This document shows positions 2,631 to 13,757 of a stretch of 37,547 nucleotides of DNA, in pieces. Both the position numbers and the translations under genes were made by a program. The notes below the pieces were generated by a model. The model saw only the letters and a list, made by a program, of their open reading frames with translations, made no database searches and was not told the DNA's origin. This DNA is from a virus (taxonomy: Duplodnaviria; Heunggongvirae; Uroviricota; Caudoviricetes). The stretch is from IMG/VR virus record IMGVR_UViG_2724679539_000004; one strand, given 5' to 3'. How positions within the stretch are numbered: the first letter of the stretch is position 1; each line of letters starts with the position of its first letter.

Positions 2631-2640
2631 CAGGTGCTTT

Positions 2641-2928
2641 ATGACCAAAGACCATGCACAAGGTGTATTTATCCGTTTTATTGATTTTCGCGGTGAACTG
2701 TTATTACGCGCATCCGCTATTGATGGAGTGGCTCCGGCGGGTAAAAACGGAGCCGACGAAGCCACTTACGTTTATCTGAACGGCACGCGACTGCTTGTGG
2801 AACTTCCGTACCAGACCGTACGAGAAATCATTAGCAAAGCTGAAAAAGCGCGCCAGGCTAATGGCAATGAACCCTATATCGAAATTATTTGCATGGATTC
2901 AGAAGCTGAAATTCAGAAAGCAGATTAA
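2641..2928 (+). CDS. Hypothetical early protein (95 aa from ATG 2641)
   Basis: ATG at 2641 with aggtg SD; longer ORF from 2581 overlaps previous gene. Confidence 0.5.
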   Translation: MTKDHAQGVFIRFIDFRGELLLRASAIDGVAPAGKNGADEATYVYLNGTRLLVELPYQTVREIISKAEKARQANGNEPYIEIICMDSEAEIQKAD

Positions 2929-2939
2929 AGGGTGTTGCA

Positions 2940-3182
2940 ATGGGCAAAGAATATAAAACACTCATCAACAAAGCACTTGAGCGTTTTTATTTTCGCTTAA
3001 GTGCATCAGGCTCTCATGCTGAACGTGCAGCCCGTGACTCATTGACCAGGGCAATCCGGAGTCTGTATGACGTGGCTTTTTACGCTGATGATCTGGATGC
3101 ACTTAACGAACTTTCCGAGCTAATCTGTGCCGCAGAATGCGGGGAACATATTGAACCGTATAAGCTGGGGAATATCGCATGA
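2940..3182 (+). CDS. Hypothetical early protein (80 aa)
   Basis: ORF in early operon. Confidence 0.5.
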   Translation: MGKEYKTLINKALERFYFRLSASGSHAERAARDSLTRAIRSLYDVAFYADDLDALNELSELICAAECGEHIEPYKLGNIA

Positions 3183-3292
3183 GTATATTTATCTCATGGC
3201 TTGTTCTGATTATTTCTGTGGCCTGCGCCATTGGGATTATGCGAATTATTCATTCAGTAAAAAAGATTGAACGCTTTTTCACTGGCGAATAA
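3179..3292 (+). CDS. Small membrane peptide (37 aa), hypothetical
   Basis: ATGA overlap with upstream stop; MSIFISWLVLIISVACAIGIMRIIHSVKKIERFFTGE, single TM helix. Confidence 0.3.
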   Translation: MSIFISWLVLIISVACAIGIMRIIHSVKKIERFFTGE

Positions 3293-3378
3293 CAGAGCAA
3301 ATAAAACCACAGGTTAAATAAGAAAATGTAAAAACAATCCGCATTCGCGGAGGTATTCGCATACGCCAAGGAGGCGTA

Positions 3379-3582
3379 ATGGCAATTAAGCATTTTCCTG
3401 TCGTTCGTTTTACCTCCAGAGGACGTGAATACGAAGTCGACGAACGCCTGATTACCACAATCGACAAACACCGTTCAGAAAAGGATGCACATCACATCTA
3501 TCTCACTGACGGCACTTACTTCTGCGCCACGAATGTGGTGCAGGTGAACCTTATCCGACAGGTACAGGAGTCACGCAGATGA
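3379..3582 (+). CDS. Hypothetical early protein (67 aa)
   Basis: ORF with aaggagg SD; overlaps next gene start by 4 nt. Confidence 0.5.
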   Translation: MAIKHFPVVRFTSRGREYEVDERLITTIDKHRSEKDAHHIYLTDGTYFCATNVVQVNLIRQVQESRR

Positions 3583-3824
3583 CCATTCTGGATTATATCG
3601 CTGCCAATCCGGGGTGTAGCGGTGGAGAAATCGCCGCAGCACTGAATACCCCAACCACAGCCATTAATGCGGAGTTACGCCGACTCTGGCGCAGCGGTTC
3701 AGTCATAAGAAAAGAGCGCAAAACAGGCGGTCGCTTTTCTTACCAGATAAACCCGATGCCGTTCGGGTGCGGCAATCCACTTACCAACATGTTTAACCAG
3801 CTACTGAAGGAAGCCAGAGCATGA
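3579..3824 (+). CDS. Small putative winged-helix DNA-binding protein
   Basis: 81 aa; GCSGGEIAAALNTPTTAINAELRRLWRSGSV resembles wHTH recognition region; ATGA coupled. Confidence 0.45.
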   Translation: MTILDYIAANPGCSGGEIAAALNTPTTAINAELRRLWRSGSVIRKERKTGGRFSYQINPMPFGCGNPLTNMFNQLLKEARA

Positions 3825-4120
3825 GCACCATCAACCACCAGAAGCTACGCGAACTGGCATTTGCCCTGCAACGAATGGCAACGCCTCAAAAATTACTGGC
3901 ATTTCGCGCAATGCTCTCGCCGTCTGCTGTGCTGGCACTGCTGGATCAGCTGGAGCACGCCAGAACCACGGCTCCTGCCATTCGCCTCACGCTCCATCAT
4001 GAAATCGCTGATTTCTGCGCAACGCTGGGGGCACCTGGCGAACCGGAAACGCCGGAAGCAATGCAGCAAGAGCTGCTGCAACGCATCGATAACGTTTTTG
4101 ATTTTTTTCTGAACCAGTAA
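3821..4120 (+). CDS. Hypothetical protein with Ea22/Ead-like N-terminal motif
   Basis: 99 aa; N-terminus MSTINHQKLRELA and LALLDQLE motif shared with the two paralogs at 9388 and 9930. Confidence 0.5.
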   Translation: MSTINHQKLRELAFALQRMATPQKLLAFRAMLSPSAVLALLDQLEHARTTAPAIRLTLHHEIADFCATLGAPGEPETPEAMQQELLQRIDNVFDFFLNQ

Positions 4121-4242
4121 GAAACCAGAACATGCACACACAAAAAAACCGCTTGCCATGCCTCAATCGGTCAGGTTACATTTCCGCTGCACCTCATAAA
4201 ACGGGTGCCGGGATTCTCAACCCGATACAGAGCAAAGCGCAT

Positions 4243-4263
4243 AACCGCGCAAGCGGTTTTTTT
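4243..4263 (+). terminator. Rho-independent terminator-like hairpin (ACCGC-GCAA-GCGGT + T7)
   Basis: GNRA-loop hairpin followed by TTTTTTT; perfect 15-bp inverted partner AAAAAAACCGCTTGC at 4142-4156. Confidence 0.5.
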
Positions 4264-4442
4264 GTGCGTACTGTATTGCCACGTCTTTTTCGCGTCAGAA
4301 TTATGGCGGGGCGTACGGGGCCGACTTCGGTCGGGCCGGATTCTTTGCTCTCCGGTGTTGAGAACCCTGTACGTCTCGCCACCCCGAGATTCTCAACTCT
4401 GGATGGTGAGTTATTTCTATCACCGAGCAAAGAGGCCACACC

Positions 4443-4673
4443 ATGGCAGACCGCAAACAGCACCGCGCTATCGCGGAGCGTCGTCACATCCAGACTGAAA
4501 TCAACCGCAGACTTTCCCGCGCATCACGCGTCGCGCAAATCATGCACATCAATATGCTGCATGAGCGCAGCCACGCACTATCAAACATTTATTCCGCCTC
4601 TGTTTTCAGCTATCTGGCGGATGATCTGCACGAGCTTCAACAGCTCATCCAGCAGCAAAACAAACTCCATTAA
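4443..4673 (+). CDS. Hypothetical protein (76 aa)
   Basis: ORF with aagagg SD 9 nt upstream; preferred over overlapping low-complexity 205-aa ORF. Confidence 0.45.
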   Translation: MADRKQHRAIAERRHIQTEINRRLSRASRVAQIMHINMLHERSHALSNIYSASVFSYLADDLHELQQLIQQQNKLH

Positions 4674-4745
4674 TTCCTGTTCCGGGCCTTTCCTGCACCT
4701 TGCGGCGGGAGGCCTTCGCACATCTGTAGTAAAGAGAATTGCAGC

Positions 4746-5135
4746 ATGATTGACGCTCATGACTTCACAAGATGGGTGCGCACACAGGACACCCGTCTGG
4801 CTCCCGTTCTTCAGGGGTTATTTGATCTCTACATCCGTGGTCGTGACAACAGAGCACGCACCACAAAACCGGAGAATGCAGACACCCTTTATTTCACAGT
4901 AGACGACTGCTACCGCGTGGACTTCACACCACACGGACTGGCGTTGCACTGCCTGACACCGCACGGCGAATCACTGCTGGCGTATTACGACTCCCCGGCC
5001 TCCGTATTTGCAGCAATGCTGGCGCATCGCACTGCTGGCGGGTGTGCCTCGCTGAGTGAATACACCGCTGAATTTAACCGCCTTTCCGCCCTCTTCTCGC
5101 AGGAGTGGCAGCGCGTGACGGGATACCAGCCATGA
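4746..5135 (+). CDS. Hypothetical protein (129 aa) translationally coupled to A
   Basis: Stop TGA overlaps ATG of A (ccATGAgt). Confidence 0.55.
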   Translation: MIDAHDFTRWVRTQDTRLAPVLQGLFDLYIRGRDNRARTTKPENADTLYFTVDDCYRVDFTPHGLALHCLTPHGESLLAYYDSPASVFAAMLAHRTAGGCASLSEYTAEFNRLSALFSQEWQRVTGYQP

Positions 5136-7972
5136 GTGCGTTTGCATGGAGCTGGAATGAACCACGACCAGCTATTGATCCGGCCAGATTTACGGAGCGC
5201 AGGCAGGAAACTGAAACCGACCTGCAACGCGCCATCCGTTACTACCTTGAGGCGGACAAAAGGGCACAGAAAGAACAGGAAGCGAAGGAAGAAGCCTTTT
5301 TCGCACAATCCGCCATGGGTAAAAAACTCATGGCATCCCTTGAGGAAGCCGGACAGCGTGAAAAGCTGGCACAGAGCATCATCAGTAAGCGCCGGGCAAC
5401 AGAACAAGACCCGGTAGCCCGTGCCTTTGCCACACTGAAGGCGCTTCCCGTTTATCTGCGAGAACCTCTGAGCCGCCACCTCTCTTTCCTGCGCAAGAAG
5501 CAGGAAGCCGATCGTCAGAAAGGCAAAAAGAGCTGGCAGGCGGAACGCTATGCACGCGGAACCCTGCGCAAAATATTCGAACGTCTGGACCGCACCGACA
5601 GCCGCTGGCTGACACCGGGTTATCGCTCCCTTGCCGGACGCGAACGCCTGGACGATTTGCTTTACCTGCCGCAGCTCAACAAACACCAGATACAGACGCT
5701 GGCCACCATGACAGCGGCGATGTTCAGCAGCACCTTCGAAAAACTCTGCGATGGCTTTGACGCGACTGATGGCGAACTGACCATGGATGTAACGCTGAAG
5801 GCGTATCAGATGCTGGCCCGCATGGCGTTACACCTGCACGCCATGCCTCCACATTATGACGCACTGACAACAGACAAAGACCGGAGGAACGAACCGGACA
5901 CGGAGCTGCTGCCGGGCGCAATCCTTCGCCTGACCTGTGCGGAATGGTGGAAACGCAAACTGTGGCTGTTACGTTGCGAGTGGAGAGAAGAACAACTCCG
6001 CGCCGCCTGTCTGGTTTCCAGAAAAACATCACCCTATCTGAGCCAGGACGCGTTAAGCGAGTTTCGCGCACAGCGCGAGAAAACACGCGATTTCCTGAAA
6101 AGTTTCATACTGGAAAACGAAGACGGGTTCACGATTGATCTCGAGACAGTGTATTACGCGGGAGTAAGTAACCCGGTTCACCGTAAGGCAGAAATGATGG
6201 CCACCATGAAGGGGCTGGAACTTCTGGCCGAAGCCCGTGGCGACAAAGCGGTGTTTCTGACTGTCACCTGCCCGTCAAAATACCACGCCACAACAGAGAA
6301 CGGTCATCCGAATCCCAAATGGAACGGGGCCACCATGCGCGACTCCAGCGATTACCTGGTTAACACGTTTTTTGCGGCGGTCCGCAAAAAACTGAACCGC
6401 GACGGCCTGCGCTGGTATGGCATCCGCACGGTGGAGCCTCACCATGACGGCACCGTGCACTGGCACATGATGGTCTTTGCTCATCCGGAAGAAATCGACA
6501 GCATCGTGGCCATCACCCGCGATATTGCCATTCAGGAAGACCGCCACGAGCTGGGCAATGATATTACTCCGCGCTTTAAGGTGGAGTATGTCGACGGCTC
6601 AAAAGGCACACCAACCAGCTACATCGCCACCTACATCGGAAAGAACCTGGACAGCCGCGCCGTGGATGGCATCGACCCAAAAACGGGCAAGCCACGCGTT
6701 GACCACGAAACCGGAAAATCAATGGCCGAGAGCGTGGAACGCGCCATCGGCTGGGCGCGCCTTCACCGGGTCCGCCAGTTCCAGTTCTTTGGCATTCCCT
6801 CCCGTCAGGTGTGGCGTGAACTCCGCCGCCTTGCCAGCCAGATGGCACGCAACCCGGAAGGCCCGCAACGGCTGAAGGATGACGCAATGGATGCGGTTCT
6901 TGCTGCCGCTGATGCCGGGTGTTTTGCCACCTACATTGAAAAACAGGGTGGCGTACTTGTTCCGCGCAAGGACTACCTGATTCGCACAGCCTACGACCTC
7001 GCAGATGAGCTGAACGATTACGGCGAACAGAGTGTACAGATTTACGGGATCTGGTCGCCACTCATCGGGGAATCCTCCCGTGTGTGCACGCACCCGGATA
7101 ACTGGAAGCTGGTAAGACGTAAACCGGAAGCGGAAGACAGCACCCACGAAAATGGTTTTGACCTTCAGGGCGGCCCTGCCGCCCCTTGGACTCGTGGCAA
7201 TAACTGTCCCCGTGCACAGGAAACGAACAACAACGGGACAGAACAGCCGGAAGAACGGCCAGCACCGTGGCCGCAGCTCCCTGACGGCGTTGAAGTGAAC
7301 GAATGGATGCGCTCACTGAAACGGCACGAACGCCGGGCGCTGATGCGTTCGCTTCGTGACAAACAGGCAAAAAACAGCAGTGATGAAATGCAGAGCTGGA
7401 CACAGAGCCGCAAACAGCAGCGGCCTTTGCCTGATAACCACGAGTTACTCGCTAAAGAATGGCGGGAGTCTGCTGAATCTCTCGGCCTGCATATCGGTGA
7501 ACAGCAGATGCAGCACCTGTTACGGGGCGGCAGCCTGTACGTTGACGACAGCATCATTGCACCGCAGGGGTTTGAAATTGTACGCAAACCGGATACACGC
7601 CCGGACAGCCGAATCACGCAGCTCTGGCAGCGCCTGAGCCGCAATCACGGCGTAAGCAGCACGGAGATCCGCCATAACCCGGTCGCCAGCTATCTGGAAC
7701 AGCTGGGGGCATCAGACCCCGAAGCCGCCGCACGCCTGGCATCCACACTTCAGCAGGACCAGAACACCATGAAAACCCCTGTTACCGTACTTTCTGACAT
7801 GCTGCGCGCCATCCGTGACGCAGAGCACGCACAGAGAATCAGTGAAACCACTGAACGCGCCAGCCGCAAAGCAGACCTGCTGCGGGGTGGCCTGACCAGC
7901 GGAAACAAAAAACAGACAGAAACGGGACTCACGAATCCCGTAAATGAGCAAAAAACGCGCAGCGATATATGA
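5132..7972 (+). CDS. A: Rolling-circle replication initiator endonuclease (P2 gpA-like, HUH)
   Basis: 946 aa; HUH motif HDGTVHWHMMVF; position after early genes as in P2; longer than P2 A (about 761 aa from memory). Confidence 0.9.
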   Translation: MSAFAWSWNEPRPAIDPARFTERRQETETDLQRAIRYYLEADKRAQKEQEAKEEAFFAQSAMGKKLMASLEEAGQREKLAQSIISKRRATEQDPVARAFATLKALPVYLREPLSRHLSFLRKKQEADRQKGKKSWQAERYARGTLRKIFERLDRTDSRWLTPGYRSLAGRERLDDLLYLPQLNKHQIQTLATMTAAMFSSTFEKLCDGFDATDGELTMDVTLKAYQMLARMALHLHAMPPHYDALTTDKDRRNEPDTELLPGAILRLTCAEWWKRKLWLLRCEWREEQLRAACLVSRKTSPYLSQDALSEFRAQREKTRDFLKSFILENEDGFTIDLETVYYAGVSNPVHRKAEMMATMKGLELLAEARGDKAVFLTVTCPSKYHATTENGHPNPKWNGATMRDSSDYLVNTFFAAVRKKLNRDGLRWYGIRTVEPHHDGTVHWHMMVFAHPEEIDSIVAITRDIAIQEDRHELGNDITPRFKVEYVDGSKGTPTSYIATYIGKNLDSRAVDGIDPKTGKPRVDHETGKSMAESVERAIGWARLHRVRQFQFFGIPSRQVWRELRRLASQMARNPEGPQRLKDDAMDAVLAAADAGCFATYIEKQGGVLVPRKDYLIRTAYDLADELNDYGEQSVQIYGIWSPLIGESSRVCTHPDNWKLVRRKPEAEDSTHENGFDLQGGPAAPWTRGNNCPRAQETNNNGTEQPEERPAPWPQLPDGVEVNEWMRSLKRHERRALMRSLRDKQAKNSSDEMQSWTQSRKQQRPLPDNHELLAKEWRESAESLGLHIGEQQMQHLLRGGSLYVDDSIIAPQGFEIVRKPDTRPDSRITQLWQRLSRNHGVSSTEIRHNPVASYLEQLGASDPEAAARLASTLQQDQNTMKTPVTVLSDMLRAIRDAEHAQRISETTERASRKADLLRGGLTSGNKKQTETGLTNPVNEQKTRSDI

Positions 7973-8014
7973 AGCGCGCACAAAACAGGCAAAAACGGGA
8001 TTTCAGAATCCCGT
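7922..8014. repeat. Two palindromic 20-bp iteron-like repeats flanking the A stop codon, upstream of parM
   Basis: ACGGGActcacgaaTCCCGT (7922-7941) and ACGGGATTtcagAATCCCGT (7995-8014) with shared flanks aaACGGGA...GAATCCCGTAAA. Confidence 0.5.
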
Positions 8015-8048
8015 AAACGATTAATTAATCAACATAAGGAAAAGCGAC

Positions 8049-9008
8049 ATGAAAATTTGTATCGACGACGGCTCCACCAACATCAAGCTGGCATGGACTG
8101 AGAACGGCGAACGCCGCAACGCCATCAGCCCGAACAGCTTCAAGTCGGAATGGTCTGCGCCGTTCGGTGGCACGCAGCCCGCGAACTACATGCTTGATGG
8201 CGTGCGCTATGGTTTTGATCCGGTCAGCGATCGCTTTGTCCAGACGACCGACACGCAATACCAATACAGCGATGTGAATGTCATTGCCATTCATCACGCG
8301 CTGGTCAAATCAGGCATCACGCCACAGGAGGTGGATGTGGTTGTCACCCTGCCACTGAGCGAGTATTTCGACACAAACGCACAGCCGGACATGGCCAACA
8401 TCAACCGCAAAAAAGCGAACGTTATGCGCCCGGTGGAGTACCAGAACGGCGAAGCATTCACTATCCGTAACGTGCGGGTTATGCCTGAATCCATTCCGGC
8501 TGGCTTTAAGGCACTGGCTGACATGAGTCCGTTTGAATCCCTGCTGATTGTGGATTTGGGCGGAACCACGCTGGATGTGGCAAAGGTTCAGGGGCAACTG
8601 GCAGGTATCAGCCAGGTGTTTTGCGATCCACACGTAGGCGTTTCTCTGATGGCCGATGCCGTACTGTCGGTGATGGCCACTAACGGTATGCGCACCAGTC
8701 ACCACATCGCCAATACCATTATCGAACATCGCCATGATGAAGCCTGGCTGCGCCAGCACATCCACAATGACGCGCATTACGCCAGCCTGATGGCGGTTAT
8801 TCGTGAAAAGGAAGAAACACTGAAACAACGCGTGATCCGCGCGCTGGCGGTTTTTTCGGGTTACGGGCGGGTGATGGTTGTCGGTGGCGGGGCGGAGATT
8901 GTGGCACCCGCTATCCGCGAAGCCTGCGGAGTTAATGCGACTTTCATCGCGGACGGGGTGCCACAGTTTGCTCTGGTTAATGGGCTGTACGCAATGGACA
9001 AGGAGTAA
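8049..9008 (+). CDS. parM: ParM/StbA-like actin-type segregation ATPase
   Basis: 319 aa; N-terminus MKICIDDGSTNIKLAW...ISPNSFKSEW and YQYSDVNVIAIHHAL closely parallel plasmid R1 ParM as recalled; LIVDLGGTTLDV and VMVVGGGAEIVAP actin-fold motifs. Confidence 0.8.
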   Translation: MKICIDDGSTNIKLAWTENGERRNAISPNSFKSEWSAPFGGTQPANYMLDGVRYGFDPVSDRFVQTTDTQYQYSDVNVIAIHHALVKSGITPQEVDVVVTLPLSEYFDTNAQPDMANINRKKANVMRPVEYQNGEAFTIRNVRVMPESIPAGFKALADMSPFESLLIVDLGGTTLDVAKVQGQLAGISQVFCDPHVGVSLMADAVLSVMATNGMRTSHHIANTIIEHRHDEAWLRQHIHNDAHYASLMAVIREKEETLKQRVIRALAVFSGYGRVMVVGGGAEIVAPAIREACGVNATFIADGVPQFALVNGLYAMDKE

Positions 9009-9012
9009 ACCA

Positions 9013-9324
9013 ATGACGACACCAACCAGACGGATAAGTTTCTATCTGAAGCCTGTGGCCGTCAAGAACGAAAGCGAAGCATGCGCCTGGCTGGACAGCC
9101 TTACACCAGAAGCCCGCAAAAGCGGCCAACGCGTGGCTTTTCTGGCCGGGCTGGCACTTCTGAAAATGAATCCAGCAGAGGCTTACCGACTGGCTGCATG
9201 GGCTGACGATGAGGCGTTATCAGTGACACAAACCAGGACAGAATGCCCCGCGTCACAGCCAGTATCAACCGCACAGATAACCAGTCAGATGGCCGGAAAT
9301 ATCCGGGCGTTATTTCCCGAATAA
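9013..9324 (+). CDS. parR: ParR/StbB-like centromere-binding adaptor
   Basis: 103 aa; RRISFYLKPVAV...AFLAGLALLKMNP...IRALFPE parallels R1 ParR as recalled; directly downstream of parM. Confidence 0.6.
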   Translation: MTTPTRRISFYLKPVAVKNESEACAWLDSLTPEARKSGQRVAFLAGLALLKMNPAEAYRLAAWADDEALSVTQTRTECPASQPVSTAQITSQMAGNIRALFPE

Positions 9325-9387
9325 CACAACATCAGGGCGCATCCGCCCTGATCTCCACCTCAGAACATAAACAAGGAGACCGACTTA

Positions 9388-9933
9388 ATGAGCGAAATCA
9401 ACTATCAGGCACTGCGTGAGTTAGCAAAACAGGCAACACAGGGCGAATGGGTCGCATTTATTTCGCCGGGCAAATACGGCACGTACGCCGTGCACACACC
9501 AGGAGATAATCATCACGGAGATATTGTCGACTGGCCTGGATTCGACGGACAGAAAAACGCAGAGAACAACGCTCGTTATATCGCAGCTTTCAACCCTGAA
9601 GTAGTGCAGGCGCTGTTGGATGAACGAGAAGCCCAAAGCAAACGCATTGCAGAGCTGGAGGCTAATTTCACGGTGCTGGCAGTGGAGAATGCCTCAATGA
9701 AGCTGTTTATCAGGGGCTGTTGCTATGTATTTGATGGAGAGCAGGATGAAATATCTGACGCGTATATCTGCGCAACAGACGGAGGAATGCCACAAACCCC
9801 AGCCACCGACGCTTTCCTGGCTGAAGTGCGGGCGCAGGGCGTGGAGATGTTTGCGGAGTGTGCATACACACTTGAACATCATGATCACGCAGTAGCTTTT
9901 GCCGCCGAGCTACGTAAAGGAGGCAGTCAGTGA
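9388..9933 (+). CDS. Ea22/Ead-like protein
   Basis: 181 aa; MSEINYQALRELAKQATQGEW N-terminus typical of Ead/Ea22 family; coiled-coil ALLDEREAQSKRIAELE. Confidence 0.6.
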   Translation: MSEINYQALRELAKQATQGEWVAFISPGKYGTYAVHTPGDNHHGDIVDWPGFDGQKNAENNARYIAAFNPEVVQALLDEREAQSKRIAELEANFTVLAVENASMKLFIRGCCYVFDGEQDEISDAYICATDGGMPQTPATDAFLAEVRAQGVEMFAECAYTLEHHDHAVAFAAELRKGGSQ

Positions 9934-10469
9934 GCAAAATTGACTATCAGGCACTACAAATGGCAGCAGAACGTGCAATTCCGGCAATGGAACGCCTGTT
10001 AATATTGCCAGTTGATGATGATTTGTTAAGCGAACAGGAACTTAAAGATTACGGTGTGGATATTGACGCGATCAACACCTTCAGACTTCTGGCTGGACCG
10101 GAAGACATGCTGGCACTGCTGGATGAACTGGAAATAGCAAAAAAGCGCATCGCTGAACTGGAAAAAATCGCCACTGACTATGCACTTAAATTCCAGAAAG
10201 CACAGGACGCATTAAAGTATGCCGCTTTGCCGCATAGCCGGACGGCGCAACAAACAAATAATCTTGCAGTATCGCTTCCGGACATAAGCGAATATTTCAT
10301 TAATGACGTATTTCAGCCCTTGCGATACGAGCGGGATGTTGAAAGAGCCATCATAAAGGCTGGCGGAAAAGCATTGTGGCAGGAGAAACACGAGGACAGA
10401 ACGCATCAGTCATGCGATGTAAATTGTGGATGGTTTAGCCCACTGACGACAGATAAAAATAACACCTGA
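9930..10469 (+). CDS. Ea22/Ead-like paralog
   Basis: 179 aa; MSKIDYQALQMAAERA and ALLDELEIAKKRIAELE; ATGA-type overlap with upstream paralog. Confidence 0.55.
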   Translation: MSKIDYQALQMAAERAIPAMERLLILPVDDDLLSEQELKDYGVDIDAINTFRLLAGPEDMLALLDELEIAKKRIAELEKIATDYALKFQKAQDALKYAALPHSRTAQQTNNLAVSLPDISEYFINDVFQPLRYERDVERAIIKAGGKALWQEKHEDRTHQSCDVNCGWFSPLTTDKNNT

Positions 10470-10959: not shown

Positions 10960-12006
10960 TCAGGCTGTGGGCTGGGTGTCTAACAGTGCGTAAGGGTTAA
11001 AGCGGATCACCTCTTCGCCCAGCCAGTCATTGATGTGCTTCATGGCCTCCATGACGGGCATCAGCTCGTTAATTGCGTAAACCCGCGCGGCCTTCTCCAC
11101 ATCACCAAACGCACTTTTTTCACCCGGCATCGCCCCCATCAGTTGCGGCGGAACGCGGTGCGCAGCCAGCACATCATCACGGGATGCCGCCTTAACATTC
11201 ATGAACTCATCCTTTGCAGTGATCTGCTGGAACGGCAAAATTTGCACCCCCTCTTTGCCCCCGTTGGGCGCATGAATGAGCACGTTTTTAAACGCACCAC
11301 CACCACGTGCCCCCTGTAGCGTTTCTTTCAGGGAGTCCATGCTTTCGCGGTTTACCTGCGCTGCACCGATGTAGATGATGCACCCGGCGTGGGATCCGTT
11401 GTCGTAATACAGTTTTCTGAACATGTCCGCCGAATGAGACAGGCTGGCCGAGAGTAATGCGCCGAGATATTCCGGCATGCCGTAGATTTCCTGGTTAATG
11501 TCAGGATTCATCAGGTGGCACACTTTGCCAGGGCGAAACTGAAACGCATCCTTGCCATCCTGCACATACCACCATGATTCAAGATCGCTTCCGCGTCGCA
11601 TGTATTTCGCCAGTGCGTGCCGTAATTTAAGCGGTTCGCCGAGCATATTGCTTCGAAGCTCAAGGAATGCGTTACCGAACACAAACCAGTCCAGCGCCAG
11701 CGCCGAGAAATCCTGCCGGGAAAGCAGCGGGTGCGGGATGTAGCAGCCGAGTAATACATTGCGCTTAAAGTAAAGCGCAGACTGATGCCAGGACGTTTGC
11801 CGGGCAGCTCTTGCCAGACCGTACCAGTCTACCGGGGTTTCATACCACCGCCCGTTATCAGCACAGTACATATTGTCCAGCAGATCATGCCCGGTCAGGC
11901 GATAAGGACCATCAAATGTGAATGCACTGAGCGATGATTCTTTCCTGAGCGCATCAGCGAGATCAATGCGTGAACTCATGCGCACTTTTTTATTTTTTCT
12001 GCTCAT
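10960..12006 (-). CDS. Q: Portal protein (P2 gpQ-like)
   Basis: 348 aa; size/position match P2 Q; ATGA overlap with P stop. Confidence 0.85.
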   Translation of the reverse strand: MSRKNKKVRMSSRIDLADALRKESSLSAFTFDGPYRLTGHDLLDNMYCADNGRWYETPVDWYGLARAARQTSWHQSALYFKRNVLLGCYIPHPLLSRQDFSALALDWFVFGNAFLELRSNMLGEPLKLRHALAKYMRRGSDLESWWYVQDGKDAFQFRPGKVCHLMNPDINQEIYGMPEYLGALLSASLSHSADMFRKLYYDNGSHAGCIIYIGAAQVNRESMDSLKETLQGARGGGAFKNVLIHAPNGGKEGVQILPFQQITAKDEFMNVKAASRDDVLAAHRVPPQLMGAMPGEKSAFGDVEKAARVYAINELMPVMEAMKHINDWLGEEVIRFNPYALLDTQPTA

Positions 12007-13757
12007 CAGAACTCCATAACCGTGAAACGCTCGTTTTCTCCTTCGCCGCCAATCGGTTCGTTAATGACAGCAAGCATGGTTGCCCACGCAAGGTCGCCGT
12101 GGCTGATCCCCCTCGCGCGGTCCGTTTCGTAAGTGATAAAGCCGCCCGGTGTTTTCACCTTACGCACGGCGTTAAAGGCCGCGACCAGCTCGCGTTCGGC
12201 GCGATCGTATTCCCACCGCCCGGCACGCATTATTTGCAGCATTTTCAGTACCAGCGACCGTTTTGATGACAGCGTGAAGGTGTACGGAATAGCAGCAGGG
12301 AAAAACCGTTTCACTATCTGATAAACAGCCTCCCCGTTCCCGCCCGTCACATCAATGCCGATGTGTTCCACGTTGTAGCGATACGTGAACTCTTCAATGA
12401 CTCTGGCCTGTTCTTCAAACTCCAGCCCCTGAACGCGTCGCGTCTCCACCGTTCGAAAACGGCCACCAGGAACAGCCGGAGGAACCACCACGGACACAGC
12501 GCCGCTGTCGCCGTTACCACTGCTGCCGTTTGCGTCATACCCAATCCATACCGGACGATTCCCCATCGGGCGGGGAGCAAAAGGTTTCCAGTCTTTCCAG
12601 TCGTCGTATCCGTCAACACCGCAGCCAATCAGGATATTCAGGTTAAATGCCGATTCCCCTTCGCGGACAAACTCACACATATAGAGATTGAGGAACTCGT
12701 CTTCGGTATTTTCATCACGAATTTCGTCGATATCGGTGTGTTTCCAGCCGTGATTAACCACATCTTCCAGCGTGACAATTTGCCGCCACGTCCGGTCAGG
12801 GCAGATAAGCCCGTTATGCAGCGTTTTCCAGTCCACAGAAAAACGCTGGCGTTTATGCGAGGCCTTTTTCTCGTTCCAGCGGTCGCCGTTCCAGTAGGCG
12901 TATGCCTCGTGCGTTTCGGTGGATGGCGTGGAGAAGTAGGTGCGCCGCAGTCCGCTGAGGGTTGCCATAGCGCCAGCCACCTTGCGCAGTTCAGCAAAGC
13001 GACTGACCCAGAAAAATTCATCAAAATAAAAATTGCCCGTATAGGACTGTGCCGACGCAGCAGAAGTGCCGAGAAAATGCAGCTCTGCGCCGTTGGAGAG
13101 GATGATTTTATCGCCCCCTTTCAGCTCCACATCAACTTCAGCCGCGGCCTTCTGGATAATGCTTTTAAACTGGAACGCCTGACGACGCGACGCAGACAAA
13201 AAAATCTGGTTACGCTGGTAAGGTTGCGCCACATCGTCACGCAGCGCCATCAGCAGAGCTTCCTGTGCAAAATACCAGGTCGCCCCAATCTGTCGGGATT
13301 TCAGGATCATCCTGTTACGTATCCCGGCTTCCCTGCAAAGGGTCAGGGAGTCAAACCAGCCCCGCTGATGCCACTCCAGCCTGCTGATGATTTTTTCCCG
13401 CAGTGCGGCAATCTGTTCCGGCGTGAAATGATTTTTGAGTTTTTTCGCCCGGCCTTTCTTTCCTGTGGCCGCCGCATCCGGCTGGCCATCATGCAGTTTT
13501 TTAAGCTGCCGGGTCAGCAGGTCTATTTCCTTGAAGTCACCACCTGTTTTATTCTGTTTTTCAGTGAGCTGGATGAGGCGCGCATCGATGGACTGCGTGA
13601 CACGCTGCACGGGTGGCGTTTCATCCCACTGGTCGCGTTTTTTCCACGCATAAATCGTGTTCGGGTTTATTCCCATCAGACGTGATATTTCTGCGGGCGG
13701 ATAACCCTGCCAGTAAAGTTGACGCGCACGCTGGCGCACAAAAGCGTCCTGAATCAT
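12006..13757 (-). CDS. P: Terminase large (ATPase) subunit (P2 gpP-like)
   Basis: 583 aa; divergent from O as in P2; terminase-like architecture. Confidence 0.85.
   Translation of the reverse strand: MIQDAFVRQRARQLYWQGYPPAEISRLMGINPNTIYAWKKRDQWDETPPVQRVTQSIDARLIQLTEKQNKTGGDFKEIDLLTRQLKKLHDGQPDAAATGKKGRAKKLKNHFTPEQIAALREKIISRLEWHQRGWFDSLTLCREAGIRNRMILKSRQIGATWYFAQEALLMALRDDVAQPYQRNQIFLSASRRQAFQFKSIIQKAAAEVDVELKGGDKIILSNGAELHFLGTSAASAQSYTGNFYFDEFFWVSRFAELRKVAGAMATLSGLRRTYFSTPSTETHEAYAYWNGDRWNEKKASHKRQRFSVDWKTLHNGLICPDRTWRQIVTLEDVVNHGWKHTDIDEIRDENTEDEFLNLYMCEFVREGESAFNLNILIGCGVDGYDDWKDWKPFAPRPMGNRPVWIGYDANGSSGNGDSGAVSVVVPPAVPGGRFRTVETRRVQGLEFEEQARVIEEFTYRYNVEHIGIDVTGGNGEAVYQIVKRFFPAAIPYTFTLSSKRSLVLKMLQIMRAGRWEYDRAERELVAAFNAVRKVKTPGGFITYETDRARGISHGDLAWATMLAVINEPIGGEGENERFTVMEF

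Follow-up and report, generated by a model that had tools for sequence, protein, structure and literature searches.

In this paper we study a stretch of 37,547 nucleotides from a Caudoviricetes virus (IMG/VR record IMGVR_UViG_2724679539_000004), which at its full length we call the window, and in particular two short palindromic sites, S1 and S2, that lie directly 5' of a pair of plasmid-type segregation genes, parM and parR. The window is a P2-family prophage of the P88/Xuanwuvirus type: test stretches of 601 and 801 bases are 97-98% identical to phage P88 and its relatives. The replication gene A, parM and parR follow one another on the + strand (Table 1). An earlier note on this DNA had described the two sites as paired palindromic iterons with identical flanks, straddling the stop codon of gene A, and had put them forward as a candidate centromere or operator of a parMRC locus.

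S1 and S2 are indeed 20-bp near-palindromes whose starts lie 73 bp apart, and the stop codon of gene A does fall between them. The pattern that they share, ACGGGA-N8-TCCCGT, has exactly two matches in the 37,547 bases when one mismatch is allowed and both strands are read, namely S1 and S2 themselves; in shuffled versions of the window the mean number of matches is 0.05, and none of 100 shuffles contains two or more. Within each box the centres of the GGG and CCC triplets are 13 bp apart. Shared flanks are likewise present, over a greater length than had been claimed: each site is embedded in a 42-nt block, the two blocks form a direct repeat with 81% identity, and between them lies a non-repeat core of 31 bp. 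The term ‘iterons’, on the other hand, overstates the case, for what we find is two inverted-repeat boxes and not an array of direct repeats. We also considered a single large palindrome reaching from S1 to S2. The corresponding long-range fold is stable (-33.3 kcal/mol, z = -5.1), but it amounts to the pairing of two similar palindromes with one another, and by eye the flanks are direct rather than inverted repeats; we therefore reject this description.

Table 1. Features at the A-parM-parR locus, in positions of the window.
Feature	Position	Strand	Remarks
Replication gene A	5105..7972	+	open reading frame of 955 amino acids, Phage_GPA domain; final 22 codons reach into the cassette
Left 42-nt repeat block	7906..7947	+	A-rich flank, S1, GTAAA flank
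Candidate parC, whole cis region	7907..8048		S1 block, central core, S2 block, parM leader; left edge of the cassette
S1, 20-bp near-palindrome ACGGGACTCACGAATCCCGT	7922..7941		core box GGG-N10-CCC at 7924-7939; within the last codons of gene A
Central core CGCGCA...CGATATA...CGCGCA	7956..7980		direct repeat and dyad alike; centre about 1 bp from the S1-S2 midpoint
Right 42-nt repeat block	7979..8020	+	A-rich flank, S2, GTAAA flank
S2, 20-bp palindrome ACGGGATTTCAGAATCCCGT	7995..8014		core box at 7997-8012, ending 36 nt before the parM ATG
parM, actin-like segregation ATPase	8049..9008	+	319 amino acids
parR, ribbon-helix-helix adaptor	9013..9324	+	103 amino acids, short form; immediately 3' of parM
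GC-rich hairpin ATCAGGGCGCATCCGCCCTGAT	9331..9352		right edge of the cassette; terminator-like on the - strand

The presence of parM and parR genes downstream of the sites is confirmed by Pfam, structure and profile matches. ParM matches the families StbA_N (1.8e-82) and ParM_N (6.3e-69), and it aligns end to end with structures of the ParM of plasmid R1 (1MWK, E=8.3e-93; 315 residues aligned, residues 2-316), to which it is about 50% identical. ParR matches Plasmid_stab_B (5.2e-23). A search of the PDB with the single ParR sequence returns nothing; a family profile built from an alignment finds the ParR/StbB structure of pB171 (2JD3, E=3e-14). When aligned with R1-type and other plasmid ParR proteins, the protein keeps a DNA-binding N-terminal strand, R(R/K)xSFYLxP, and a C-terminal tail, (K/R)N(A/I)xxLFP, and the window's own versions, an RRISFYLKP strand and an NIRALFPE tail, are common to R1-type ParR. 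An AlphaFold2 model of the ParR monomer has a mean confidence (pLDDT) of 62, and Foldseek finds no match to it in the PDB at E<1; this model is uninformative because the fold needs a dimer. From these homologies we regard ParM and ParR as true members of the type II ParMRC families. A further observation concerns the mosaic structure of ParR: by comparison with L002, L012 and P0029-P0054, only the middle third is swapped, between an unchanged stretch of 24 residues at the N-terminus and an unchanged LFPE tail at the C-terminus, such that the overall identity of the mosaic proteins is 51-57%, next to ParM proteins that are 99% identical and boxes that are unchanged.

Since S1 lies within the last codons of gene A, it is important to ask whether it belongs to that gene or to the genes that follow it. 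Two IMG/VR relatives with differing upstream DNA, L135 and L067, allow the boundaries to be read directly. Their similarity to the window begins at 7908 and 7907, respectively, and the GGG of S1 follows 17 nt later. The similar stretch takes in parM and parR and stops at 9352 and 9380, just beyond the hairpin that follows parR. Upstream of this stretch, L135 has a different C-terminal part of A, and L067 has an unrelated left flank with a 31-codon open reading frame. In the Hafnia locus L009 the stop codon of A is found at the centre of S1, yet both boxes and their 73-bp spacing are kept. Three different upstream reading frames cross S1, those of L009 and L067 included, and open reading frames other than that of the window also cross it in L135 and in a more distant Hafnia relative (L219, see below). 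Many of the polymorphisms in S1 are, moreover, nonsynonymous. We therefore conclude that S1 is not conserved for encoding the tail of protein A. The two sites are found only in phages that carry parMR, and these comparisons indicate that they travel with parMR as one cassette of about 7907-9352. In one defective prophage (L138, NZ_CP085183.1 2272155-2277201) the equivalent of window positions 2637-8012, from the end of a DUF4761 gene to the end of S2, is deleted; its parM and parR stand directly behind genes of the early operon, and neither box is present.

The earlier note had suggested a search of related prophages for conserved repeats, and such repeats are abundant. A pattern scan of viral contigs yields at least 120 loci; among the matches listed, 129 of 131 pattern-bearing loci have parM downstream, and the other two are parM loci as well. 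A second set, chosen via ParM alone and hence unbiased with respect to the sites, contains 76 usable loci. Both sites are present in 75 of them, with a spacing of 73 bp (74 loci) or 72 bp (one locus). The locus that lacks the pair, L154 (IMGVR_UViG_2657245439_000011), has lost exactly 73 bp, and its 42-nt repeats are merged into one hybrid box; the deletion presumably arose by recombination between the direct repeats, and this locus can be regarded as a natural single-box mutant. Among the 75 loci, which are of the E. coli type, the common changes in S2 are 7995 A>G, found in 35 loci, and 8012 C>T, found in 21; S1 varies at 7928 (to C), at 7940 (G>A) and at 7941 (T>C). Nowhere in the region is polymorphism greater than in the central core.

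More distant relatives extend the comparison. A ParM scan of genome contigs gives three near-identical loci only; intermediate relatives were reached by a ParM protein search with contig look-ups, which led to P2-like prophages with ParM identities of 54-62%, whose contigs we fetched. Nearer to the window than these is the Hafnia locus L009, in which ParM is 94% identical and the third codon positions of parM are 72% identical; across 7982-8012, which spans the core box of S2, 29 of 31 bases agree with the E. coli sequence (a hand count on the alignment). In a second Hafnia sp. locus (L219, ParM 62% identical), the GGG-N10-CCC box occurs exactly twice in the 200 nt 5' of parM, as GGGATTGAGGAAACCC and GGGTTCATTAAATCCC, with a spacing of 73 bp; in a Plesiomonas locus (L220, ParM 62%) the two boxes, GGGACAACAAAAACCC and GGGACAACACTAACCC, are spaced by 72 bp. 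From the end of the downstream box to the parM ATG there are 39 nt in L219 and 43 nt in L220, as compared with 36 nt in the window. When these two regions are shuffled with dinucleotide content preserved, the box pair occurs in none of 2000 trials per region, and a single box in at most 5%.

What is conserved across lineages is therefore the 16-bp GGG-N10-CCC box, and not the full 20-bp palindrome. The interiors of the L219 and L220 boxes are not self-complementary, and no T-run follows them on either strand; in the sense of parM, their stems have 3-4 bp, with 10-nt loops and energies of -4.2 to -4.9 kcal/mol. Apart from the four half-sites, the part of the cassette upstream of parM contains no run of three G or three C in the window, L009, L219 or L220, with the exception of the GGG in the L220 parM ribosome-binding site. 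The spaced pair of boxes is thus kept in four lineages. Within a lineage the two boxes are more alike than are boxes of different lineages, and ParR identity to the window falls to 41% in L219 and 37% in L220; one would expect as much of sites evolving together with a single binding protein. The GGG and CCC triplets stay 10 bp apart, the boxes keep their spacing of 72-73 bp and their register with parM, the hairpin is lost, and the two copies change in step; taken together, this points to double-stranded-DNA sites of a single co-evolving protein.

On these grounds we propose that S1 and S2 are the paired ParR-binding boxes of a split, minimal parC, belonging to a prophage type II (ParMRC) cassette of about 7907-9352. 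We assign this reading a probability of roughly two in three. At the protein level the locus is, by homology, a type II ParMRC, and its cis region would be a split parC of two palindromic boxes on an integrating P2-like phage. The centromere half of the earlier proposal is thereby supported, by position, by linkage to parMR and by the deep conservation of the pair.

The following mechanism would be consistent with this reading. Ribbon-helix-helix dimers of ParR would recognize the inverted half-sites AATCCCG and CGGGATT in each box. The boxes are seven helical turns apart and the A-tracts are phased, so that the bound ParR proteins would be aligned along one side of about 100 bp of bent DNA. 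(The A-tracts, although few in number, are in phase at 10.5 bp with R=0.94, a value equalled in 1.6% of shuffles, or 0.25% for L009.) The complex would then present the C-terminal tails of ParR (…NIRALFPE) to the ends of ParM filaments, whose growth would push copies of the element apart, and bound ParR might also throttle transcription from gene A into parM. For ParR we infer all of these activities, that is, binding, stoichiometry, bending, segregation and regulation, from sequence.

The comparison with known centromeres is instructive in both directions. The parC of R1 consists of two sets of five 11-bp direct iterons around a 39-bp promoter region, 159 bp in all; it binds about one ParR dimer per iteron and is reported to be strongly curved (PMC2241845). 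In type II loci in general, parC lies directly upstream of parM (PMC5016525; for R1, PMC2241845), and ribbon-helix-helix centromere binders take direct and inverted repeats alike (PMC5016525). The phage region resembles the parC of R1/NR1 (the StbA/StbB family) in that it stands directly 5' of parM and parR, in that the ParR proteins are homologous, and in that two repeat blocks surround a central core. An R1-type plasmid locus (L014) has iterons such as AAACCCAAAAAC and AACCCACTCCA, with CCC cores every 11 bp, and the phage half-site with its flank, AATCCCGTAAAC, resembles the iteron AAACCCAAAAAC: both combine a CCC core and A-tracts. Against the curvature reported for the R1 site (PMC2241845) can be set the phasing of the phage A-tracts, which might indicate bending there too. 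The differences are equally clear. The phage element has two inverted-repeat boxes with four CCC cores and is therefore no R1-type parC, which is defined by ten 11-bp direct iterons; it has no detectable promoter; on its left side it overlaps with the last codons of the upstream gene; and it sits on an integrating P2-like prophage rather than on a low-copy plasmid.

Other systems may be compared in the same way. The chromosomal ParCMR of Clostridium botulinum has, like the phage, a few palindromic repeats in place of a long direct array: its candidate centromere, Cb-cParC, contains three palindromes, ParR binding was demonstrated by electrophoretic mobility shift assay, and a figure legend places cparC after cParR (PMC12270681). 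This is a Firmicute system, however, whose sequence is not detectably related to the phage sites. In the parC of pSK41 and the omega system of pSM19035, ribbon-helix-helix adaptors bind repeats of about one helical turn. Those arrays are contiguous (continuous repeats in pSK41, 7-10 heptads for omega), whereas the phage has two isolated boxes seven turns apart. As for plasmid parC regions of the IncI, IncL/M and IncF types (L015-L017), the GGG-N10-CCC box is found in none of them; they contain other types of repeat.

The notion of an operator depends on a promoter, and the earlier note had spoken of a parM promoter region. That region turns out to be an assumption: a consensus scan of 7400-9600, on both strands, predicts no promoter of the sigma-70 type. 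Candidates can be picked out by eye, TGAGCA-15-TATATG in the window and TGAACA-16-TATAAG in L009, but they are weak and are not conserved across all four lineages. In L009 the central core has CGTGCA in both copies and keeps CGATATA, and to judge by its TGAACA-16-TATAAG the core could hold a weak promoter. We also tried the ATTAAT upstream of the parM Shine-Dalgarno sequence as a -10 box; although conserved, it is a poor fit to the consensus. This element (ATTAAT / TTAATCAA, just 5' of the Shine-Dalgarno sequence, window 8020-8035) is kept in the window, L009, L219 and L220. It contains stop codons in two reading frames in the window and in all three in L009 (TGATTAATAAAG), and it may serve to end any upstream open reading frame that enters the cassette. 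Transcription of parMR may come from an early promoter, together with A.

Several observations weigh against our reading. Four CCC cores, as against the ten iterons of R1, may be too few for the ring- or U-shaped complex that caps a ParM filament. Because no promoter is detected in or near the region, the classical dual role of centromere and operator is unsupported, and with it the operator half of the earlier proposal. The E. coli loci diverge too little to separate the conservation of a protein site from that of a hairpin. Nor does the two-box architecture, as far as the retrieved contigs indicate, extend to the whole clade: in Serratia (L221) and Enterobacter (L222), with ParM 54-58% identical, the layout is a single long inverted repeat with GGGAAC…GTTCCC ends, composed of a AACAGGCAAAAACGGGA-type left element, an AT-rich inverted repeat of 14-19 bp and a GTTCCCAAAAGC-type right element. 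(The flank AACAGGCAAAAACGGGA of the right block in the window also occurs 5' of parM in the Serratia locus.) Finally, of 5426 complete E. coli genomes, 1291 contain the 181-bp region with the sites, and 1415 of its 1417 places are chromosomal; for an element that is nearly always chromosomal, the need for a centromere is not obvious.

It is important, therefore, to weigh the alternatives. One could suppose that the boxes are operators at which some other DNA-binding protein, be it Cox, the C repressor, Ogr or an unknown regulator of the phage, or else a protein of the host, acts on the expression of parMR or on the end of the early operon. Spaced dyad boxes do imply some dimeric binder of double-stranded DNA, without naming which. 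The boxes travel, however, with parMR (7907 to about 9352) and not with the rest of the phage; ParR is the only recognizable DNA-binding protein in that cassette; the box occurs nowhere else in the 37.5-kb window; and its sequence shifts along with the ParR lineage. Nor do the boxes fit the P2 Ogr dyad (TGT-N12-ACA), the Cox boxes or the direct repeats of the C repressor. We consider such operators unlikely.

Alternatively, the sites could act as RNA, independently of ParR: as stem-loops in the A-parM transcript that serve stability or processing, or as a stem-loop at the 5' end of the parM mRNA. On the + strand the stems have energies of about -8.7 to -10.7 kcal/mol, with folds of -9.0 and -10.7 kcal/mol (z = -2.5 for S1 and -3.8 for S2); the common S2 changes, 7995 A>G and 8012 C>T, retain G·U pairing on this strand; and the loop nucleotides vary while the arms are kept. 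A variable centre with conserved arms, however, is equally expected of the site of a dimeric protein. The S1 changes listed above break + strand pairing, and overall the wobble pairs that are tolerated fit a - strand hairpin better at S1 but a + strand hairpin better at S2, so that neither strand is consistently supported. Our first large set for covariation analysis was picked by a pattern that fixes the arms, and is therefore biased; the ParM-selected set is unbiased but too shallow, and within it we see no compensatory double changes in the stems, single changes breaking the pairing on one strand or the other. The weak + strand stems of L219 and L220, in which the GGG/CCC triplets and spacing are nevertheless kept, speak against a conserved RNA structure as well. 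A search of 7700-8300 against Rfam 15 gives no match at the gathering threshold (the sole match has E=8.4), and in the whole window only isrK and C4 exceed that threshold, both away from the sites. A role as RNA thus seems to us improbable.

A third possibility is that the sites are tandem Rho-independent terminators of leftward, - strand transcription, which would protect gene A and the early operon against antisense read-through or end a cis-antisense RNA over the ribosome-binding site of parM. The earlier note had thought simple terminators unlikely for want of a T-run. This holds for the + strand, but on the - strand each hairpin has an 8-bp stem (-10.2 kcal/mol) followed by a T-rich run, and both are terminator-like in a consensus scan; the late genes Q and P (10960-13757), moreover, are transcribed leftward. 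Against this, the scan of 7400-9600 predicts no - strand promoter, and another terminator-like hairpin is already available to leftward transcription at 9352-9331, after parR. The two common S2 changes (in 21 and 35 of the 75 loci) give A·C mismatches on the - strand and shorten the U-run, and L219 and L220 keep the boxes and their spacing with weak stems and with T-runs on neither strand. Terminators would, furthermore, leave the 72-73 bp spacing and the fixed distance to parM unexplained. There is, in our estimation, little chance that termination is what the sites are for.

The weakest alternative, that the sites are part of a P2-type replication origin recognized by protein A, has in its favour that P2 and 186 have their origins within gene A and that S1 falls within the 3' end of that gene, but it is highly improbable, since the only stretch of gene A that is conserved across otherwise unalignable P2-like phages lies elsewhere, at about 7166-7237 and some 700 bp from the sites, since S1 and S2 occur only in phages carrying parMR, and since they persist next to other A C-termini or with an extra open reading frame between A and parM. 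The stretch at 7166-7237 is of interest in itself. Many P2-like phages of Klebsiella, Salmonella and Yersinia, whose A genes cannot otherwise be aligned as DNA, share 45-65 nt of it at 81-91% identity, and it is probably the nick site, or origin, recognized by protein A.

We return to the reading of S1 and S2 as a two-box parC. If it is correct, one may ask what such a cassette does in a phage. Our proposal, which we offer only tentatively and regard as rather doubtful, is that P88-type prophages have a working ParMRC, with a minimal two-box centromere, that acts on the excised, replicating phage genome. It would either position or segregate phage DNA during lytic growth, by analogy with the AlpACS system, or maintain a plasmid-like carrier state. 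AlpACS, from the prophage CGP3 of Corynebacterium glutamicum, likewise consists of an actin-like filament protein and a DNA-binding adaptor, both encoded by the prophage, and of specific sites on the DNA (alpS), and it serves phage DNA transport and replication, not plasmid inheritance (PMC4446434, PMC5539076). AlpC and AlpA are not close homologues of R1-family ParM and ParR, and both host and phage type differ; AlpACS is nonetheless the best functional analogy for a prophage that carries such a cassette.

Three deposited sequences may be noted. A circular sequence of 34,461 bp deposited as an E. coli plasmid (NZ_CP148288.1, pZ1323PEC0009-2) resembles a whole P88-like genome, with A, parM, parR (ParR 99% identical), terminase, capsid scaffold and capsid genes. 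Either the assembly has captured an excised or replicating form of the phage, or the sequence represents a plasmid-like state. In NZ_MK439959.1 (43014-49325; our L002) a P88-like prophage, with gene A, parMR and a portal gene, lies inside a 228-kb conjugative IncC plasmid with KPC. A contig labelled Vagococcus sp. WN89Y (NZ_JBQPOM010000071.1) contains the same enterobacterial prophage region, with 98% ParM identity; its host label being Gram-positive, the assembly is likely to be contaminated or mis-binned.

Some neighbouring features of the window may also be recorded. Two adjoining Ead/Ea22-like genes follow the cassette on the + strand (9388-9933 and 9930-10469). At their position relatives have different cargo, including HicAB, a KAP NTPase, Ogr/Delta and an Rrf2 regulator, and the interval from parR to the portal gene is a variable slot for accessory genes (‘morons’). 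The two Rfam matches above the gathering score, isrK (63.1 bits, 4189-4263) and the C4 antisense RNA (78.5 bits, 4299-4386), both on the + strand, stand side by side upstream of an open reading frame at 4443-4673; in sequence the pair looks like a P1/P7-like antisense immunity or antirepressor module in a P2-like prophage.

In a literature search we found no paper that addresses the P88-type parMR cassette, and the understanding of type II centromeres comes from a few plasmids whose iteron arrays are long. If our reading is correct, a natural parC of two palindromic boxes would show how small a site can be and still let ParR capture a ParM filament: four CCC cores, divided between two boxes at a distance of seven helical turns, would suffice to couple DNA to the filaments. 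P88-type prophages with the cassette are present in about a quarter of complete E. coli genomes, and the sites could cause incompatibility or interference with plasmids or co-resident prophages that bear the same boxes. With the cis site known, it becomes possible to test directly what a phage that integrates gains from a machine for plasmid segregation. The result may not surprise a specialist in partition, but it does point to a very common prophage system with a precise, mutable target.

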